Counted from the first letter of the stretch, positions 4,876-54,220 are shown. The stretch is 55,324 nt of DNA from a bacterium (GCA_019421005.1 JAHZGA010000003.1:1-55324), one strand, 5' to 3'. The notes: generated from the letters alone by a model not told the origin. Translations and numbers: made by a program.

Positions 4876-5223
4876 AATATTTTATAAGCCATGTTCTGTA
4901 CCTATTTCTAGGCGACAAACATCTATCTATGAATTAAATTCATCCCATAACCAGTTCTTATTCCCAGTTATTAGGCTCCCCTACCATAATTTGGGTTTCT
5001 CGCTCGTGGGGTTTACCGCGTTCCACTTTTTTAATTTCTTAAAAAAATCGTCACTATGGCACTTTATGTCTAATTTGACCATATCAATGACTTAGGTCAT
5101 TTCGACGCCGTTAGTTAAAAACTACCATAAGTTATTTTTTCCTTATGCACGAACACTACCATCATCACAGATGGTGCGAGCATGGACTTTCCTCTATATT
5201 TCTATAGCGTTTGTCAAAATATT
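4876..5223 (-). ncRNA. rnpB: RNase P RNA, type B (Bacillus-like)
   Basis: The minus strand carries universal and type-B blocks: GAGGAAAGTCCATGCTCGCAC, AAAGTGCCATAGTGACG, GTGGAACGCGGTAAACCCCACGAGCGAGAAACCCAAAT..GGTAGGGG, ATAGATAGATG..TGTCGCC, ACAGAACATGGCTTA. P1 can form between AATATTTT (5' end) and AAAATATT (3' end). Ends are accurate to about 5 nt. Confidence 0.9.
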
Positions 5224-27814: not shown

Positions 27815-28138
27815 TTATGCTTTTAAAATTTTATCAATACATTCAACAATATTACTTGAAGTTCCACCTTCAACAACTAAACCTACAACAAACTTAACAA
27901 TAACTACTACGAAGAATACAATTAAAGCCGCCAACAGTCTTGATAGAAAAGTTTTCCAACCTTTTTTTATATCATCTTCTTTTTGTTGAATAACAGCTTT
28001 TCCTAAATCTAACATTCCCCAGACAATTAATAAAATAGGAACACCTATATATATAAAGTTTATTACCATCGCTACTATATGTGCCAGTTGTTGAGGAATA
28101 CTAACTCCATCTCCACACGAAATATCTAATATAAACAT
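27815..28138 (-). CDS. VirB2/TrbC-like pilin-type protein, paralog 2
   Basis: 107 aa with two TM segments separated by the basic loop QQKEDDIKKGWKTFLSR. SD GAGGAGG. Shares YIGVPILLIVWGMLDLGKA with paralog 1. Confidence 0.6.
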   Translation of the reverse strand: MFILDISCGDGVSIPQQLAHIVAMVINFIYIGVPILLIVWGMLDLGKAVIQQKEDDIKKGWKTFLSRLLAALIVFFVVVIVKFVVGLVVEGGTSSNIVECIDKILKA

Positions 28139-28255: not shown

Positions 28256-28576
28256 TTAATAATCAATTAACTTATCAACGCATTCCGAAACACCATACAT
28301 TCCTGGTAAATCTGCTTTAGCTAAAATTCCTAAAACAAATTCTACTGCTACTGCTATAAAAAATACTAAAACAGCACTTAATAAACGTTTAAAAAACATT
28401 TTTTGGTGTTTCTTAATTTCATCTTCTTTCTGACTAATAGTTGCTTTTCCTAAATCTAACATTCCCCAAACAATTAATAAAATAGGAACACCTATATAAA
28501 AAGCCTTAATTAACATACTTACAATAACAGCTATTGTTTCTGGAATAGTAAAAGTTCCACAAGTAATATCTAGCAT
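28256..28576 (-). CDS. VirB2/TrbC-like pilin-type protein, paralog 1
   Basis: 106 aa with two TM segments, a basic loop SQKEDEIKKHQKMFFKR and SD GAAGGAGGG. It is the first gene of the cluster. Confidence 0.6.
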   Translation of the reverse strand: MLDITCGTFTIPETIAVIVSMLIKAFYIGVPILLIVWGMLDLGKATISQKEDEIKKHQKMFFKRLLSAVLVFFIAVAVEFVLGILAKADLPGMYGVSECVDKLIDY

Positions 28577-49132: not shown

Positions 49133-49273
49133 TTGATTATTGTATAAATAAACATTGGTTATTTTTCTTATAATAAGGTAGCATTTCTATCTGAATAATT
49201 ATTTAATATTAAAACATTTATATGTAATTAACATCTTAAGATAAGGTTATTTTTATTACTTCGTATTAGTTAT

Positions 49274-49302
49274 AAAAAAAAAATAGGAATTAATCAATTC
49301 CC
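49274..49302 (-). terminator. Strong intrinsic terminator (GGGAATT-GATT-AATTCC + T10)
   Basis: Minus-strand hairpin at 49286-49302 followed by ten T. It would end the transcript from the module-L promoter about 115 nt upstream. Confidence 0.75.
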
Positions 49303-49368
49303 ATTAAAAATTATAGAAAGTAGGTGATACTTATGATAGAAAAAATATTTCTTTCATATGTATCACTT

Positions 49369-49497
49369 GTGTTCAATTTACTTGAACAACTATATCATAC
49401 CATATTTTTTTAGTACATTTCAAGTATTTATTTATATTTAGATTAAAAAATATTCTCTATATGTATATGTTTTTTTATTTTTGTTTTAAAATATAAC
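49369..49497 (-). repeat. Promoter/leader module, copy L (degenerate, A/L subtype)
   Basis: Aligns by eye with 51811-51925 (cttg..catatcata..ttcaagtatttatttatattta.attaaaaa.t.ttctctatatgtatatgttttt). Confidence 0.6.
49394..49423 (-). promoter_or_regulatory. Module-L promoter (TTGAAA-18-TGgTATGAT)
   Basis: TTGAAA at 49423-18 and TATGAT at 49399-94, preceded by TGG. Confidence 0.5.
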
Positions 49498-49732
49498 ATT
49501 GGTAATAATAAATCTAAAGATAATTTTAATAAATATTGACTTAAATATATATACAGTAGTTACTGAAATAATTATTAAAAAGTTTGATTTGTTAAGTTTA
49601 ATAAATTGAAAAACAAATAACTTGGTTACAAAAAATATGGCTTTGATAAAAAAGTGGCAAAAAAGCGGCAAAAATTTTTTGAACAACTATCACTCTATTA
49701 TCTTTTCAAAGATAGTAGATAGGAGTGATTTA

Positions 49733-50956
49733 ATGAGAAAAGATGTAAGTAATGAAATTATAAGAATAGGAGGTGATAGTATTAATAAAAGTGAATTGGC
49801 AAGAATCATGGGATGTTCAAGACAAACAATTTATAATCGTGAAGAAAGATTGAAAAATCCCAAACCTAGAAAAAATATTGTTAGATCAAGTAAACTTGAT
49901 CCATATAAGGAAATAATAGATACTAAAGTGGATAAATATCATAGTAAAGCCATGAATGTTTATAAGTTCATAAAAAAGCAAGGTTATACTGGAGGATATG
50001 GGATAGTCAGAAACTATGTTAAATCGCATAAAAATGAGCAAATAAAAAAGGCAACAATAAGATTTGAAACCATACCAGGATTACAAGCACAAGTAGATTG
50101 GAAAGAATCTATGAAATTAGTAAATAAACACGGTGAAGTATATGAAGTAAATATATTTCTCATAATACTAGGTTATTCAAGGTATAAATATATTGAATTA
50201 ACTAGTGATAGAAATCAAAATACACTATTCAAATGTATGGTTGGAGCTTTCGGATATTTTAATGGTTGCCCCAAAGAAATATTATTCGATAATATGAAAA
50301 CTGTTGTAGATAAAGCAAGAACAACTATAACTAATGTCGTATTTAATAAAAGGTTTGAAAGTTTTAGTAATGATGCAGGTTTTACACCTATAGCTTGTAT
50401 TGGATATAGACCTAAAACCAAAGGAAAAGTTGAAACTCTAGCAAGAATAATGGAAAGATTAAGACCTTATAACGAAGAGTTTGAGACTTGGGAAGATTTA
50501 GATGCAATAGTAAAAGAAATAAACGAAGATATAAACAACGAGGTTGTTCAAGGTGTAAATATTATTCCAAATGAAATTTATGAAAAAGAAAAAGAGTATC
50601 TTAATCCTCTACCATTATGGGATAGACTAATTAATTACTATGAGCCAGAAAAAACTTATAAAGTATCTAAAGAGTCTATGATAACATATAAAGGAAAAAA
50701 ATACTCAGTTCTAACGTATCTGATAAGTAAACAAGTTACTGTAACAGAAATTGATTCCAGAATCAATATATATTATAACATTACAGACTTTATTTGCCAA
50801 CATGAGATGAGCAACAAATATTTAAATTATCATGAAAGTGATTTAAAAGAAATAATGAAAAGCGAAGCATATAGAAATAAAACAGATGAAGAAATACAAG
50901 AAATAATAGAATTAAAAAAGAAAGATAAATTGTTAGGAGTGAAAATAGATGAATGA
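49733..50956 (+). CDS. istA: IS21-family transposase IstA
   Basis: N-terminal HTH (SELARIMGCSRQTIYNRE) and a DDE integrase-like core (QVDWKE..., FDNMKT...). The ATG at 49733 has SD AGGAGTG. Confidence 0.9.
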   Translation: MRKDVSNEIIRIGGDSINKSELARIMGCSRQTIYNREERLKNPKPRKNIVRSSKLDPYKEIIDTKVDKYHSKAMNVYKFIKKQGYTGGYGIVRNYVKSHKNEQIKKATIRFETIPGLQAQVDWKESMKLVNKHGEVYEVNIFLIILGYSRYKYIELTSDRNQNTLFKCMVGAFGYFNGCPKEILFDNMKTVVDKARTTITNVVFNKRFESFSNDAGFTPIACIGYRPKTKGKVETLARIMERLRPYNEEFETWEDLDAIVKEINEDINNEVVQGVNIIPNEIYEKEKEYLNPLPLWDRLINYYEPEKTYKVSKESMITYKGKKYSVLTYLISKQVTVTEIDSRINIYYNITDFICQHEMSNKYLNYHESDLKEIMKSEAYRNKTDEEIQEIIELKKKDKLLGVKIDE

Positions 50957-51710
50957 ATATAATAACTTATTAAATAATTTGGAAGTATTAAAATTAGAAA
51001 AAATGAGAAGTTTTTTACCAAATTATTTAGAAGAAATAACAAACAAAAAAATACCATTTCAAAAAGCGTTTTTGAAATTAACCAACAAGGAAATAGAATA
51101 TAGGAATGAAAGAGCCTCAAAAATTCAAATAACTGTATCTGCTTTTCCTTATGAAAAAGAATTAAAAGACTTTGATTTTGATTATCAACCATCGATTGAT
51201 AAAGATAAGATAGAAGATTTAAACACTTTACGATTTTTAGAAAAACATGAAAATATATTGTTTGTAGGGTCAAGTGGTGTCGGTAAGACACACTTGGCTA
51301 CAGCAATTGGAGTAACTGCTGCTAAAAAAAGATATTCAGTATATTTTATATCATGTCATGATTTGATTACACAATTAAATAAAGCTCATTATGAAAATAA
51401 ATTAGAAAATAGAATAAAACATTTTTGTAGATATGAATTGTTAATAATAGACGAAATAGGTTATCTTCCTGTAGATAAACAAGGAGCAAATTTATTATTT
51501 CAATTGATAGCAAAAAGATATGAGAAAAGATCTACAATAATAACTACTAATATGACTTTTAGTAAATGGGGGGAAGTGTTTAGTGATAATACATTAGCTA
51601 ATGCAATTCTTGATAGATTGCTCCACCATTCACATGTAATTAATATAACAGGTAATTCATATCGAATAAAAGATAAAATAGAACAACTTGAAAATACACA
51701 AAAAAGATAG
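50949..51710 (+). CDS. istB: IS21-family helper ATPase IstB
   Basis: Walker A GSSGVGKTHLA and Walker B LLIIDEIGY. It overlaps the istA stop by 8 nt, as is typical. Confidence 0.93.
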   Translation: MNEYNNLLNNLEVLKLEKMRSFLPNYLEEITNKKIPFQKAFLKLTNKEIEYRNERASKIQITVSAFPYEKELKDFDFDYQPSIDKDKIEDLNTLRFLEKHENILFVGSSGVGKTHLATAIGVTAAKKRYSVYFISCHDLITQLNKAHYENKLENRIKHFCRYELLIIDEIGYLPVDKQGANLLFQLIAKRYEKRSTIITTNMTFSKWGEVFSDNTLANAILDRLLHHSHVINITGNSYRIKDKIEQLENTQKR

Positions 51711-51789
51711 ATATATACCTGTCTTGAATATAAAGAAGTGTCCAACTTTGAAATTGACATTTTTGTCCAAAAAATCATTGACATTTACA

Positions 51790-51925
51790 CTTTTTTTATT
51801 TTATGCAAGTTTCCTTGCTAAATACATCATATCATATTTTTTTTATTTCTTTCAAGTATTTATTTATATTTAAATTAAAAAGTGTTCTCTATATGTATAT
51901 GTTTTTTGTTTTTATTTTAAAAATA
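51790..51925 (-). repeat. Promoter/leader module, copy A (truncated by the IS21 insertion)
   Basis: ctttttttattttatgcaagtttccttgctaaatacatcatatcatattttt is shared with copies B and C. Homology breaks exactly at the IS end. Confidence 0.7.
51826..51855 (-). promoter_or_regulatory. Module-A promoter (TTGAAA-18-TGaTATGAT)
   Basis: TTGAAA at 51855-50 and TATGAT at 51831-26. Confidence 0.5.
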
Positions 51926-51928
51926 CAA

Positions 51929-51957
51929 TTGACACTCGAAAATATGTTTGGTACAAT
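51929..51957 (+). promoter_or_regulatory. Near-consensus sigma-A promoter (TTGACA-17-TGgTACAAT) driving the small hydrophobic peptide ORF
   Basis: TTGACA at 51929-34, 17-nt spacer, TACAAT at 51952-57, preceded by TGG. Confidence 0.6.
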
Positions 51958-52029
51958 TGTTTTAAGGAACATTTAATAAAGTTGGGTGTTATCTATTTTC
52001 TATAAAATAATAGAAAGTGGGTGATGTTT

Positions 52030-52128
52030 ATGATAGAAAAAAATTTTTCTTATCAAATAATAAGTTTTTTATTAACAGTAATAAAAATGCTTATGGCATT
52101 GCTTATTATTATAGCAATTAAACTGTAA
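52030..52128 (+). CDS. 32-aa hydrophobic peptide (type I toxin-like candidate)
   Basis: MIEKNFSYQIISFLLTVIKMLMALLIIIAIKL has a single TM. SD AGAAAGTGGGTGAT lies upstream, the promoter about 73 nt upstream, and a hairpin 10 nt after the stop. It is below the ORF-track cutoff. Confidence 0.45.
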   Translation: MIEKNFSYQIISFLLTVIKMLMALLIIIAIKL

Positions 52129-52137
52129 TAATAAGTA

Positions 52138-52168
52138 AGCACCTAAATCATCATTTGAATTAGGTGCT
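52138..52168. terminator. Shared hairpin (agcacctaa...ttaggtgct) between the convergent peptide mRNA and the module-B transcript
   Basis: 9-bp GC-containing stem plus a closing pair. U-tracts are weak on both strands. Confidence 0.55.
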
Positions 52169-52258
52169 ATTTAAAAACTTTAAATCATTAGGTAGCACCC
52201 AACATGTAACTATTAGATGTTCCTTTTTTTATTTTATGCAAGTTTTCTTGCTAAATAC

Positions 52259-52287
52259 ATCATATCATATTTTTCTGCTTTTTTCAA
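52259..52287 (-). promoter_or_regulatory. Module-B promoter (TTGAAA-17-TGaTATGAT)
   Basis: TTGAAA at 52287-82 and TATGAT at 52264-59. Confidence 0.55.
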
Positions 52288-52352
52288 GGTGATTATTTTT
52301 TTATTGATAATTACCGTTTTCTATATGTTTATTGTTTCTTACAATAATAGTA

Positions 52353-53090
52353 TTAATTATCTTCTAGAAAATAATTTACTAGTTTTTCATAATTATCTTG
52401 ACTATTTAAACAAGTATCTATTAAATATCCTCTTTCATTATTTATTTGATATTCTTTAATACCTCTTATATAAAAATCTTTGTTTCTATCTTCAATAAAG
52501 AAAGGCATTATATCATTGTATAAACATTCTCTAAATATTATCATTCTTCCGATACGCCCATTTCCATCTTGAAAAGGATGGATACGTTCAAATCTAACAT
52601 GAAATTCAATAATATCTTCTATTGTTTTATTATCTATTTTATCATACCATTTTAATAATTCTTTCATATCAGTTGCAACATTACTTGGTAATGATGTAGT
52701 AATATTGCCAACAAAGTTACTTTTCTTTTTATACTCACCTACATTAAACCATTCTTTTTCATTATCAGTTAAAGTACCTTCTTTTAATATAAAATGAAAT
52801 TTTTTTATCATATCTTCAGATAATTTATCATCAATTGTATCTAACATATACTTAAACAAAGTAAAATGATTTTTTATTTCGGTGGCATCTTTTAAAACAA
52901 TTACTTTATTTTTATTAGCTAAAATTGTTCCAGTATCATAAATACTTGCGGTTTCATCAGGGGTTATTGTAGAACCCTCAATATGATTTGTGTTATAGGC
53001 AAAATCAATTTGAGTTTTATGATAAAGACTACCTGATAAACCAATATTTTTTTGTTCAATTAAAGCATTCTTTATTTTTTTTACTTCCAT
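52353..53090 (-). CDS. Fic-domain protein (putative AMPylase) with an N-terminal auto-inhibitory motif
   Basis: Fic motif HPFQDGNGRIGR. TNHIEG matches the [ST]xxxE[GN] inhibitory helix motif. SD AAAGGAGG. Confidence 0.9.
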   Translation of the reverse strand: MEVKKIKNALIEQKNIGLSGSLYHKTQIDFAYNTNHIEGSTITPDETASIYDTGTILANKNKVIVLKDATEIKNHFTLFKYMLDTIDDKLSEDMIKKFHFILKEGTLTDNEKEWFNVGEYKKKSNFVGNITTSLPSNVATDMKELLKWYDKIDNKTIEDIIEFHVRFERIHPFQDGNGRIGRMIIFRECLYNDIMPFFIEDRNKDFYIRGIKEYQINNERGYLIDTCLNSQDNYEKLVNYFLEDN

Positions 53091-53139
53091 TTTTTTACCT
53101 CCTTTAAAACTTTAACTATAATTTTTCAAATAATAAGTA

Positions 53140-53170
53140 AGCACCTAAATCAGCATTTGAATTAGGTGCT
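53140..53170 (-). terminator. Leader hairpin (candidate attenuator terminator) in the Fic 5' leader
   Basis: AGCACCTAA..TTAGGTGCT stem followed by TACTTATTATTTG. The upstream GGGTGCTACC can alternatively pair with TAGCACC of the 5' arm. Confidence 0.5.
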
Positions 53171-53258
53171 ATTTTAAAATTCAATATTACAGGTAGCACC
53201 CAACATTGCACTATTAGATGTTCCTTTTTTATTTTATGCAAGTTTTCTTGCTAAATAC

Positions 53259-53287
53259 ATCATATCATATTTTTTGGCTTTTTTCAA
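53259..53287 (-). promoter_or_regulatory. Module-C promoter (TTGAAA-17-TGaTATGAT), probable Fic promoter
   Basis: TTGAAA at 53287-82 and TATGAT at 53264-59. No better promoter is visible between the hairpin and the Fic SD. Confidence 0.55.
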
Positions 53288-53332
53288 GGTAATTATTTTT
53301 TTATTGATAATTACCGTTTTCTATATGTTTAT

Positions 53333-54220
53333 TTAATTGCCTTTGATAATAACAGTATTATCAATAACATTGTCTTTAAGTTGACTGCATTTTCCATCAT
53401 CTTTGCTAATTTCAAACTTTAATATCGATGTCATATTTTTACTACTATAAAAATAATAATCTGTATTATAGTCTTCACTATAATAATGATTTAATTTTAC
53501 ACCGTTTTTATTTTGAAATGCTTTAATATTGATATCTTTTTTAGTTAAATTAGTATAATATTTTTTAGCTTGTTCTTTTTGAGTTGTTTTTCTATTTAAT
53601 CTATATTCATCAGTTAATGTTAAAGTAAGATAACAAATATTGTCATTATCATTATATTGAAAAAGTACTTCTGTATAATGATATTTTCCTTTTTTATAAC
53701 TATTGAAACTTGGATTTTTTAGTTCTGGTATATTATTATATTCTAATTTTAATCTTTCAACATTTTTAGAACTTAAATTTAGAAACATTAATCCAATTAA
53801 TAATAGTAATATTTCTATAACATATGTTAATACAACCGTAACAGCACTTGTGCCTCCTTTTACCTTACAAATTTGTTTTAATTCATCCATATCAGAGTTA
53901 GGATTATTTTTAATTATTTCATCTATTTTTTCATTACAAATATTTAAATATTCTTGTTTAAAATTAAATGATAAAACAATATTAACTATTGGTACAGCAT
54001 AAGATAAAAGGAATAAATCAGGGAAAAATATAACTAAAACATAATTTATTATTGATAATAAAGTCAGTATTATACCCATCGAATAACATTTGCGGTATAA
54101 CAAATATAAACTTCCAAAAGCAAATAAATTCCATGAGAATTTTCCACGAGTAAATTCTTTATAATTATTCCCTACATAAGATTTTAATAACTCTTCTCTA
54201 TTGATTATTGTTTGTTCCAT
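53333..54220 (-). CDS. DUF2628-like membrane protein with a C-terminal soluble domain
   Basis: FSWNLFAFGSLYLLYRKCY plus following TM segments is the pattern recalled for DUF2628. The start is uncertain (ATG 54220 or TTG 54235). Either way it overlaps the upstream gene. Confidence 0.65.
   Translation of the reverse strand: MEQTIINREELLKSYVGNNYKEFTRGKFSWNLFAFGSLYLLYRKCYSMGIILTLLSIINYVLVIFFPDLFLLSYAVPIVNIVLSFNFKQEYLNICNEKIDEIIKNNPNSDMDELKQICKVKGGTSAVTVVLTYVIEILLLLIGLMFLNLSSKNVERLKLEYNNIPELKNPSFNSYKKGKYHYTEVLFQYNDNDNICYLTLTLTDEYRLNRKTTQKEQAKKYYTNLTKKDINIKAFQNKNGVKLNHYYSEDYNTDYYFYSSKNMTSILKFEISKDDGKCSQLKDNVIDNTVIIKGN

Follow-up and report, generated by a model that had tools for sequence, protein, structure and literature searches.

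The locus at positions 51,929-52,287 of a 55,324-nucleotide (nt) bacterial DNA stretch (GCA_019421005.1 JAHZGA010000003.1:1-55324; the whole stretch is hereafter called the window) was compared with related loci in other genomes, and its conserved features indicate that it is probably a type I toxin-antitoxin (TA) module. The plus strand would be transcribed into an mRNA of ~275 nt encoding a 32-amino-acid (aa) single-helix membrane peptide. The minus strand would yield a structured RNA of ~120 nt from a strong TG-extended promoter, fully complementary to the 3' untranslated region (UTR) of the mRNA over about 105 nt. The probable type I TA family represented here, which numbers over 130 RNA copies among uncultured gut bacteria, is apparently undescribed, and a literature search returned no description of this peptide/RNA family.

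Organization of the Locus

The elements predicted at the locus are listed below with their coordinates in the window and their strand (ORF, open reading frame; SD, Shine-Dalgarno sequence; MFE, minimum free energy).

51929..51957 (+): promoter of the peptide (putative toxin) mRNA, TTGACA-17-TGgTACAAT, with TTGACA at 51929-51934 (promoter scan, 11/12 plus TG)
51964..52238 (+): predicted peptide mRNA of about 275 nt, comprising the 5' UTR, the ORF, and a 3' UTR that spans the entire antisense RNA gene (folding; both ends predicted)
51964..51992 (+): 5' arm of a long-distance interaction (mRNA nt 1-15 and 18-29), similar in sequence to the hairpin-2 region of the antisense RNA (mRNA fold)
51993..52020 (+): local anti-SD/SD hairpin, CUAUUUUCUAU (51993-52003) with AUAGAAAGUGG (52010-52020) (mRNA fold)
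52012..52025 (+): SD AGAAAGTGGGTGAT, with ATG 4 nt on (sequence reading; GGAGG-type SDs stand at the equivalent place in the family)
52030..52128 (+): 32-aa ORF MIEKNFSYQIISFLLTVIKMLMALLIIIAIKL, putative membrane toxin, with ATG at 52030 and TAA at 52126-52128 (ORF scan, family comparison)
52139..52169 (both strands): hairpin 3, AGCACCTAAATCATCATTTGAATTAGGTGCT, 31 nt, the antisense RNA terminator stem, whose complement folds in the mRNA beyond the stop codon (folding, -14.8 and -15.0 kcal/mol on the two strands)
52192..52238 (+): 3' arm of the long-distance interaction (52192-52225, the hairpin 2 complement) and the U-run 52226-52238, the probable mRNA end (mRNA fold)
52130..52252 (-): antisense RNA gene (putative antitoxin) of about 123 nt, with the 5' hairpin GCAAG-N4-CUUGC, an A-rich single strand, hairpin 2, hairpin 3, and a U-rich tail (87.6 bits with the covariance model R1; MFE -32 kcal/mol, z = -4.9; covariation)
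52259..52287 (-): antisense RNA promoter, TTGAAA-17-TGaTATGAT, with TTGAAA at 52287-52282 and its end at 52259 (promoter scan)

The plus-strand promoter, the SD, the 32-aa ORF, and the hairpin 10 nt past the stop codon were all found where a preliminary description of this DNA had placed them. The minus-strand promoter described as facing the same hairpin was located at 52287..52259, at a distance of 90 nt instead of about 95. Two additional in-frame TAA codons follow the stop at 52126-52128, and the ORF scan lists the ORF from a GTG upstream of the ATG at 52030. By themselves, the promoters, ORF, and hairpin are no better than chance in AT-rich DNA. A scan of 3.3 kb returned 31 promoter-like sites versus 30.3 expected, 39 ORFs of at least 20 aa, and no terminator by a simple rule; the plus-strand promoter shared the top score with a minus-strand site at 50800..50772. 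The significance of the locus therefore lies in the conservation of its arrangement in other genomes.

Conservation and Structure of the Antisense RNA

Species-representative genomes were searched with a pattern for the 5' hairpin and the A-run of the RNA (TAGCAAG-N4-6-CTTGCATAAAATAAAAA). At least 118 stretches matched, and all of the matches listed came from metagenome-assembled genomes (MAGs) of uncultured gut bacteria of the Bacilli type. The R1 model of the antisense RNA matched 133 times, in 100 loci of Bacilli/'Tenericutes' MAGs from uncultured gut bacteria. Every individual fold contained three hairpins, namely a 5'-terminal hairpin of 5 bp, hairpin 2, and a terminator hairpin with a U-run after it. 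RNAalifold predicted 20 pairs from 40 non-redundant sequences, 11 of them with compensatory changes. In the R1 alignment, which was fitted to the model and so favours structure, 95.4% of the paired cells could pair versus 86.2% in shuffles, and the controls with partners slid by 1-3 columns were nonetheless far lower (28-39%). Double (compensatory) changes were found in 17 of the 20 pairs, including all seven modelled pairs of hairpin 3, and the observed covariation score was attained by none of 500 shuffles. Covariation thus showed the minus-strand unit to be a conserved, structured putative RNA gene of ~120 nt.

The strand of this RNA was also evident from the alignment. G-U pairs are frequent on the antisense-RNA strand only, where the opposite strand would have A-C mismatches, and in 64 (hairpin 2) and 59 (hairpin 3) of the 90 units that carry a peptide ORF (see below), the more favourable fold is that of the RNA strand and not of its complement. 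These two features of the sequences point to selection on the minus-strand transcript. The position of the RNA promoter is fixed, with a TG-extended -10 element in 86 of the 90 units accompanied by a TTGnnA -35 element, and across the family this promoter outscores most of the predicted peptide promoters.

Distribution of the Family and Conservation of the Peptide ORF

Sufficient flanking sequence for an ORF test was available for 126 RNA copies. A convergent hydrophobic ORF of 24-32 aa lay opposite the RNA in 90 of them under strict filters (strongly hydrophobic, GGAGG-type SD, stop codon 100-130 nt from the RNA start), and several more copies missed the filters solely through start-codon or SD variants. 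The convergent hydrophobic ORF and antisense RNA gene with 3' overlap, initially described for the window, thereby recurred in related genomes, in 90 or more units that differ from one another, all with a predicted single-transmembrane (TM) ORF. The peptides form several subfamilies (MKTKTFILKVLKLISIILLLSTLLVLAIKK; MSKKDFLISALILIILLLIALLFIFAT; MTKRETSLFIIILLLFFIVITLLFK; MRKQEKYLCTIIILLIIVILIILIKIVPTA), and the two main ones, MKTKTFILKVLKLISIILLLSTLLVLAIKK and MSKKDFLISALILIILLLIALLFIFAT, include members with 41-48% identity to the window peptide.

Substitutions at the first, second, and third codon positions numbered 3809, 2399, and 4849 in the 30-aa ORFs and 435, 240, and 662 in the 27-aa ORFs, counted over sequence pairs, which are non-independent; the order is third > first > second. 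At least half of the codons with a single difference were synonymous within the ORF length classes. The peptide ORF is thus shown, by its substitution pattern, to be conserved as a putative coding sequence.

Tandem units are frequent and repeat every 346-508 bp. Loci L093 (3853-5100; up to four successive copies by the R1 model), L101 (6860-7673), L079, L128, L161, and L167 contain arrays of three or four complete units that repeat about every 350-390 bp, and different peptide subfamilies are mixed in some arrays of related genomes. The identical layout with different peptides occurs near a Fic gene in locus L056 and beside unrelated genes in L065. Loci L075 (reversed, about 230-400) and L143 are deletion derivatives in which hairpin 2 of the RNA directly adjoins the toxin 5' UTR complement; the ORF and hairpin 3 look as though they had been lost by recombination between the complementary arms.

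The window contains a Fic-domain gene next to the locus (53090..52353; Pfam Fic, E = 2e-17), whose relatives came exclusively from uncultured gut MAGs labelled Bacilli, Tenericutes, Erysipelotrichaceae, and similar. Of 69 loci carrying a related Fic gene, only 3 had the RNA, which marks the modules as accessory. At 4880-5222 (-), the window encodes a bacterial RNase P RNA of class B (296 bits), in support of a Bacilli/Mollicutes-type chromosome. Several searches for closer relatives were negative. The suggested tblastn check of the window peptide gave noise only among the 69 Fic-relative loci, and exact-protein look-ups for Fic and for the 35-aa and 32-aa forms of the peptide returned no record. 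Zero matches were obtained in genome contigs with an initial 35-nt module pattern and with a window-specific SD/start pattern, and in metagenome scans for the peptide N-terminus and for hairpin 3.

Predicted Structure of the Peptide mRNA

The complement of the antisense A-run forms a U-run directly after the hairpin 2 complement, so the peptide mRNA most likely terminates at about 52226-52238, past the whole antisense gene. The hairpin at which both RNAs had been proposed to meet therefore stands as the antisense terminator and not as a simple shared stop, the mRNA probably running ~100 nt further. With a predicted overlap of about 105 nt (about 52130-52238), read-through is not needed for antisense pairing.

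The fold of 51964-52238 had an MFE of -89.3 kcal/mol versus -43.3 kcal/mol for shuffles (z = -9.5). In this fold, mRNA nt 1-15 and 18-29 pair with 52192-52225, leaving the final 13 nt unpaired. The predicted start, 51964, lies 7 nt past the -10 element and is the first nucleotide of the 5'-3' pairing; across the family, the predicted -10 element mostly ends 5-7 nt ahead of the first paired nucleotide. The median duplex energy of the 5' and 3' UTRs in the family was -37.4 kcal/mol compared with -19.5 kcal/mol for shuffles. Cognate pairs averaged -36.1 kcal/mol and non-cognate pairs -25.3 kcal/mol, and the cognate partner ranked first of 45 in 15 units and among the top five in 36. At positions where the 5' arm and the antisense RNA disagree, transitions that keep pairs (206) outnumber those that break them (101). 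The three differences at paired positions of the window helices are all C-to-U changes that still pair with G. Complementarity of the mRNA 5' end to its own 3' UTR is thus shown, on sequence and predicted folds, to be a family trait, and it is an addition to the picture given by the preliminary description.

In the window mRNA fold, the local hairpin takes up the upstream half of the SD. The median unpaired probability of the SD core in the family was 0.22, equal with and without the 3' UTR, so masking of the SD is local; hok-like masking by the 3' UTR was considered and dropped on the same result. A second, Fst-like antisense site at the ribosome-binding region was likewise rejected, the interaction of the RNA with the translation-initiation region having a median of -15.8 versus -16.3 kcal/mol for shuffled sequences (z = 0.08).

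Comparison with Known Type I Systems

The locus contains a small (<60 aa) hydrophobic ORF with its own ribosome-binding site and an antisense RNA gene complementary, by the position of the predicted transcripts, to the toxin mRNA, as generally required of type I systems. A search of Rfam (4227 models, E up to 10) returned nothing for the locus region beyond two chance-level matches, and eight family peptides gave no meaningful match in Pfam and NCBIfam (E up to 10), including none to an Fst-type profile. T1TAdb lists 24 families, and in those of Gram-positive bacteria the antisense RNA is located 3' and has a partial overlap with the mRNA (PMC8594479); the layout found here is therefore the canonical Gram-positive one.

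The resemblance to txpA/RatA and bsrG/SR4 that had been proposed holds for the layout and does not extend to sequence or profile matches, as no peptide or RNA homology to these systems was found in the Rfam, Pfam, and NCBIfam searches. As in txpA/RatA, bsrG/SR4, and bsrE/SR5 of Bacillus subtilis, the genes are convergent, the peptide is small with a single TM helix, and the SD is partly masked by mRNA structure (PMC6563280; PMC8594479). According to PMC6563280, the txpA/RatA duplex is cut by RNase III, SR4 has a dual action, and SD masking is known for such systems. By analogy, action through an extended duplex and RNase III cleavage would also be expected here, and the overlap of about 105 nt agrees with the TxpA/RatA-BsrG/SR4 layout. 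Peptides of the txpA/bsrG type have 38-59 aa, whereas those of the present family are shorter (24-32 aa), and the RNA there overlaps a larger part of the ORF, here at most the last few codons. A further difference is the conserved mRNA 5'-3' pairing, in which the 3' partner coincides exactly with the target of the antisense RNA; to our knowledge, such pairing has not been described for the txpA/RatA and bsrG/SR4 systems.

Full-length hok and aapA toxin mRNAs are closed by a 5'-3' long-distance interaction kept by covariation, with the antisense RNA binding the 5' region and the 3' arm masking the SD (PMC6733600). The present family shares with hok/Sok (enterobacterial plasmids) and aapA/IsoA (Helicobacter pylori) the 5'-3' clamp (in silico here), SD-sequestering hairpins, multi-copy loci, and copies inactivated by insertion sequences (ISs) (PMC6733600). 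In those systems, however, the antisense RNA targets the 5'/ribosome-binding region and acts on 3'-processed mRNA, whereas here the whole RNA gene is located 3' of the ORF and the RNA would target the 3' arm of the clamp; the SD is masked there by the 3' arm and here by the local upstream hairpin. Both families are Gram-negative and unrelated in sequence to the present one.

Fst/RNAII (par of pAD1) and SprA1/SprA1as are similar in being Gram-positive, with convergent genes, peptides of ~30 aa, and the antisense RNA on the 3' side (PMC8594479). Their antitoxins act at the 5' translation-initiation region outside the overlap, and here no such site is detectable. The systems of the CD2517.1/RCd8 type from Clostridioides difficile, as described in PMC6563280, also lack homology to other type I toxins and have a long duplex suggesting degradation. 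Their toxins have 50-53 aa and are encoded in prophages or beside CRISPR arrays; they have no sequence relation to the present family, and no 5'-3' clamp is reported for them in the text consulted. From its predicted transcripts, the family described here reads as joining the Gram-positive 3'-overlap layout with a hok/aapA-like 5'-3' clamp, a combination for which no description was found in the literature.

Other Copies of the Module and Neighbouring Elements

The minus-strand promoter with its downstream sequence occurs three times in the window, with promoters at 51855, 52287, and 53287. Besides the intact locus, the following copies were recognized.

53132..53287 (-): orphan antisense RNA copy with promoter and without a peptide gene, directly upstream of the Fic gene (R1, 90.1 bits; repeat comparison)
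51793..51855 (-): truncated antisense RNA copy, consisting of the promoter and the first ~27 nt and cut by the end of an IS21-family element (R1, 45.5 bits; the 5' part alone is genuine)
49307..49420 (no strand assigned): decayed unit with SD, ATG, and about nine codons, the first four identical to the toxin MIEK, fused to a diverged antisense promoter and 5' hairpin (repeat comparison)

The orphan copy is 96-97% identical to the 52130..52252 copy over most of its length and 89% identical across hairpin 2, and carries the same hairpin at 53141-53171. Direct repeats of ~205 bp (52127-52333 and 53129-53333), mostly 96-97% identical and exactly 1000 bp apart, bracket the Fic gene, each holding an antisense-RNA gene with its promoter. 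The orphan RNA has a weak U-tract and ends 40 nt before the Fic SD, so that read-through may extend transcription into Fic; most Fic relatives have a different sequence upstream of Fic. A 41-aa ORF at 53116-53241, which overlaps the orphan copy, was taken as spurious. A terminator/antiterminator riboswitch in the Fic leader was dropped as a candidate because the same RNA is the antisense partner of peptide genes elsewhere.

The SD and start of the peptide ORF recur at 49307-49350 with 86% identity to those of the intact toxin gene. The ORF of this decayed unit, MIEKIFLSYVSLVFNLLEQLYHTIFF, is not TM-like, and the unit is not detected by R1. The decayed region (49270-49420) has a diverged minus-strand promoter, TTGAAA-17-TATGAT (about 49431..49403), and an RNA starting from it would carry the 5' hairpin GUUCAAGUAAAUUGAAC and end at the hairpin GGAATTgattAATTCC followed by a U-run. 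Speculatively, this RNA, antisense across the SD and start codon, could act in trans on the ribosome-binding site of the intact toxin.

The IS21-family element occupies 49622-51793, with istA at 49622-50956 (IstA, rve domain) and istB at 50949-51710 (IstB, E = 3e-81), and ends at TGTAAATGTCAATGATTTTTTGGACAAAAATGTCAAT, inside the truncated antisense-RNA copy; the left side of the element yielded no inverted repeat to match. In locus L080 (reverse strand, about 6692 in the reversed sequence), a near-identical IS end of ~38 nt abuts the toxin ORF start codon, and a methyltransferase-like gene follows the IS end in place of istA. Elsewhere in the window, a 143-nt direct repeat (27962-28104 and 28409-28551, 78% identity) lies within adjacent minus-strand ORFs of ~106 aa (27815..28138 and 28256..28576), which are probably paralogous small genes.

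Evaluation of Alternative Explanations

Several observations weigh against the interpretation as a TA module. About a quarter of the RNA copies are orphan, frameshifted, deleted, or hit by an IS end, so the RNA can persist alone; this decay fits the usual decay of chromosomal type I loci. A close relative of the window peptide was not found in the genome-contig, metagenome, or exact-protein searches, and ORF conservation is therefore established at the family level only. The window copy is atypical in its SD (GUGGGUGAU, not GGAGG), in the peptide N-terminus MIEKNF, which lacks the usual net positive charge, in the interrupted U-tract of its antisense terminator (CUUACUUAUUAUU), and in a weak mRNA terminator hairpin (-4.0 kcal/mol versus a family median of -10.4 kcal/mol). 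To these are added the non-independent substitution counts and the structure-favouring alignment mentioned above. The interrupted U-tract and the weak mRNA terminator make read-through plausible on both strands. Minus-strand read-through would plausibly yield an RNA antisense to the entire ORF and, at the 53287 copy, would transcribe Fic.

The alternative that survives best, unlikely as it is, holds that the ORF encodes a real but harmless small membrane protein, for instance a regulator or a membrane-complex subunit, which is tuned by a cis-antisense RNA without any addiction or toxin module. The conservation of the ORF and the RNA indeed shows function and not toxicity, but the tandem arrays of several copies, the patchy occurrence (3 of 69 loci with Fic relatives), the frequent decay to orphan RNAs, the IS insertions, and the absence of a conserved adjacent partner gene argue against such a protein, as do the masked SD, the 5'-3' clamp, and an antisense promoter scoring above most predicted peptide promoters. 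Several of these traits are typical of type I toxins rather than of housekeeping small proteins (PMC6563280; PMC6733600).

That the minus-strand module is a portable promoter with a 5' leader or attenuator for downstream genes (as for Fic, 53287..53091), with the small ORF being incidental, is considered very improbable. This explanation would account for the position and weak U-tract of the copy upstream of Fic and for several orphan copies in other genomes that precede same-strand genes. However, 90 of the 126 modules face a peptide ORF and have no same-strand gene directly after them, and this ORF has a coding pattern and a conserved strong SD. The hairpin sequences, moreover, vary freely without a conserved core resembling a ligand pocket, and no Rfam match was obtained.

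There is similarly little probability that the unit is a non-autonomous mobile repeat resembling a miniature inverted-repeat transposable element, in which the complementary 5' and 3' UTRs are terminal inverted repeats acting in DNA. The units are multi-copy, tandem, and patchy, with inverted repeats near both ends, as such an element would be, but the inverted repeat begins exactly at the predicted transcription start and ends at the U-run, and the differences between its arms favour G-U-compatible changes, an RNA-level signal. The unit moreover has two promoters and an SD, an ORF under constraint, and an RNA fold that is specific to one strand. Finally, promoter-like hexamers, a short ORF, and a hairpin might have come together by chance in AT-rich DNA, and promoter-like sites and short ORFs do occur at background frequency in the region. 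This explanation is effectively refuted by the comparison, the entire arrangement being conserved with covariation in well over 100 loci.

Proposed Mechanism and Significance

As a TA module, the locus would operate as follows. The mRNA would be made, terminated, and closed into a clamp with a masked SD, remaining stable and poorly translated. The abundant antisense RNA would dock through its single-stranded A-run on the free 3' U-tail of the mRNA and would then zip along the 3' UTR, displacing the mRNA 5' end and opening the clamp. RNase III would cut the long duplex and exonucleases would degrade the opened ends, by analogy with txpA/RatA and bsrG/SR4, so that peptide synthesis would be kept off. 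On loss of the RNA, slow activation of the mRNA would lead to insertion of the peptide in the membrane and to damage. It is tentatively suggested that the antitoxin RNA mimics the 5' end of the toxin mRNA, having the same 3' UTR target, using the A-run and U-tail as a toehold, and displacing the clamp. If this model were true, both mRNA ends would be exposed to exonucleases and an RNase III substrate would be created. The promoter-plus-RNA cassette may in addition have been co-opted as a leader from which read-through of the terminator drives neighbouring genes, for example Fic.

Many type I TA systems are thought to escape detection, since searches depend on similarity to known families (PMC12390103). 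The present family was found from its architecture alone and is abundant in an uncultured AT-rich gut Bacilli lineage. With its 90 peptide genes and over 130 RNA copies, the data set documents covariation in both the RNA fold and the mRNA clamp. It yields candidate membrane toxins of very short length (24-32 aa), a covariance model with which such loci can be annotated in MAGs, and a putative regulatory design in which the antisense RNA and the mRNA 5' end would compete for the 3' UTR. The family also helps to explain local genome plasticity, as direct repeats of the RNA gene flank Fic and IS ends lie inside the putative TA units.
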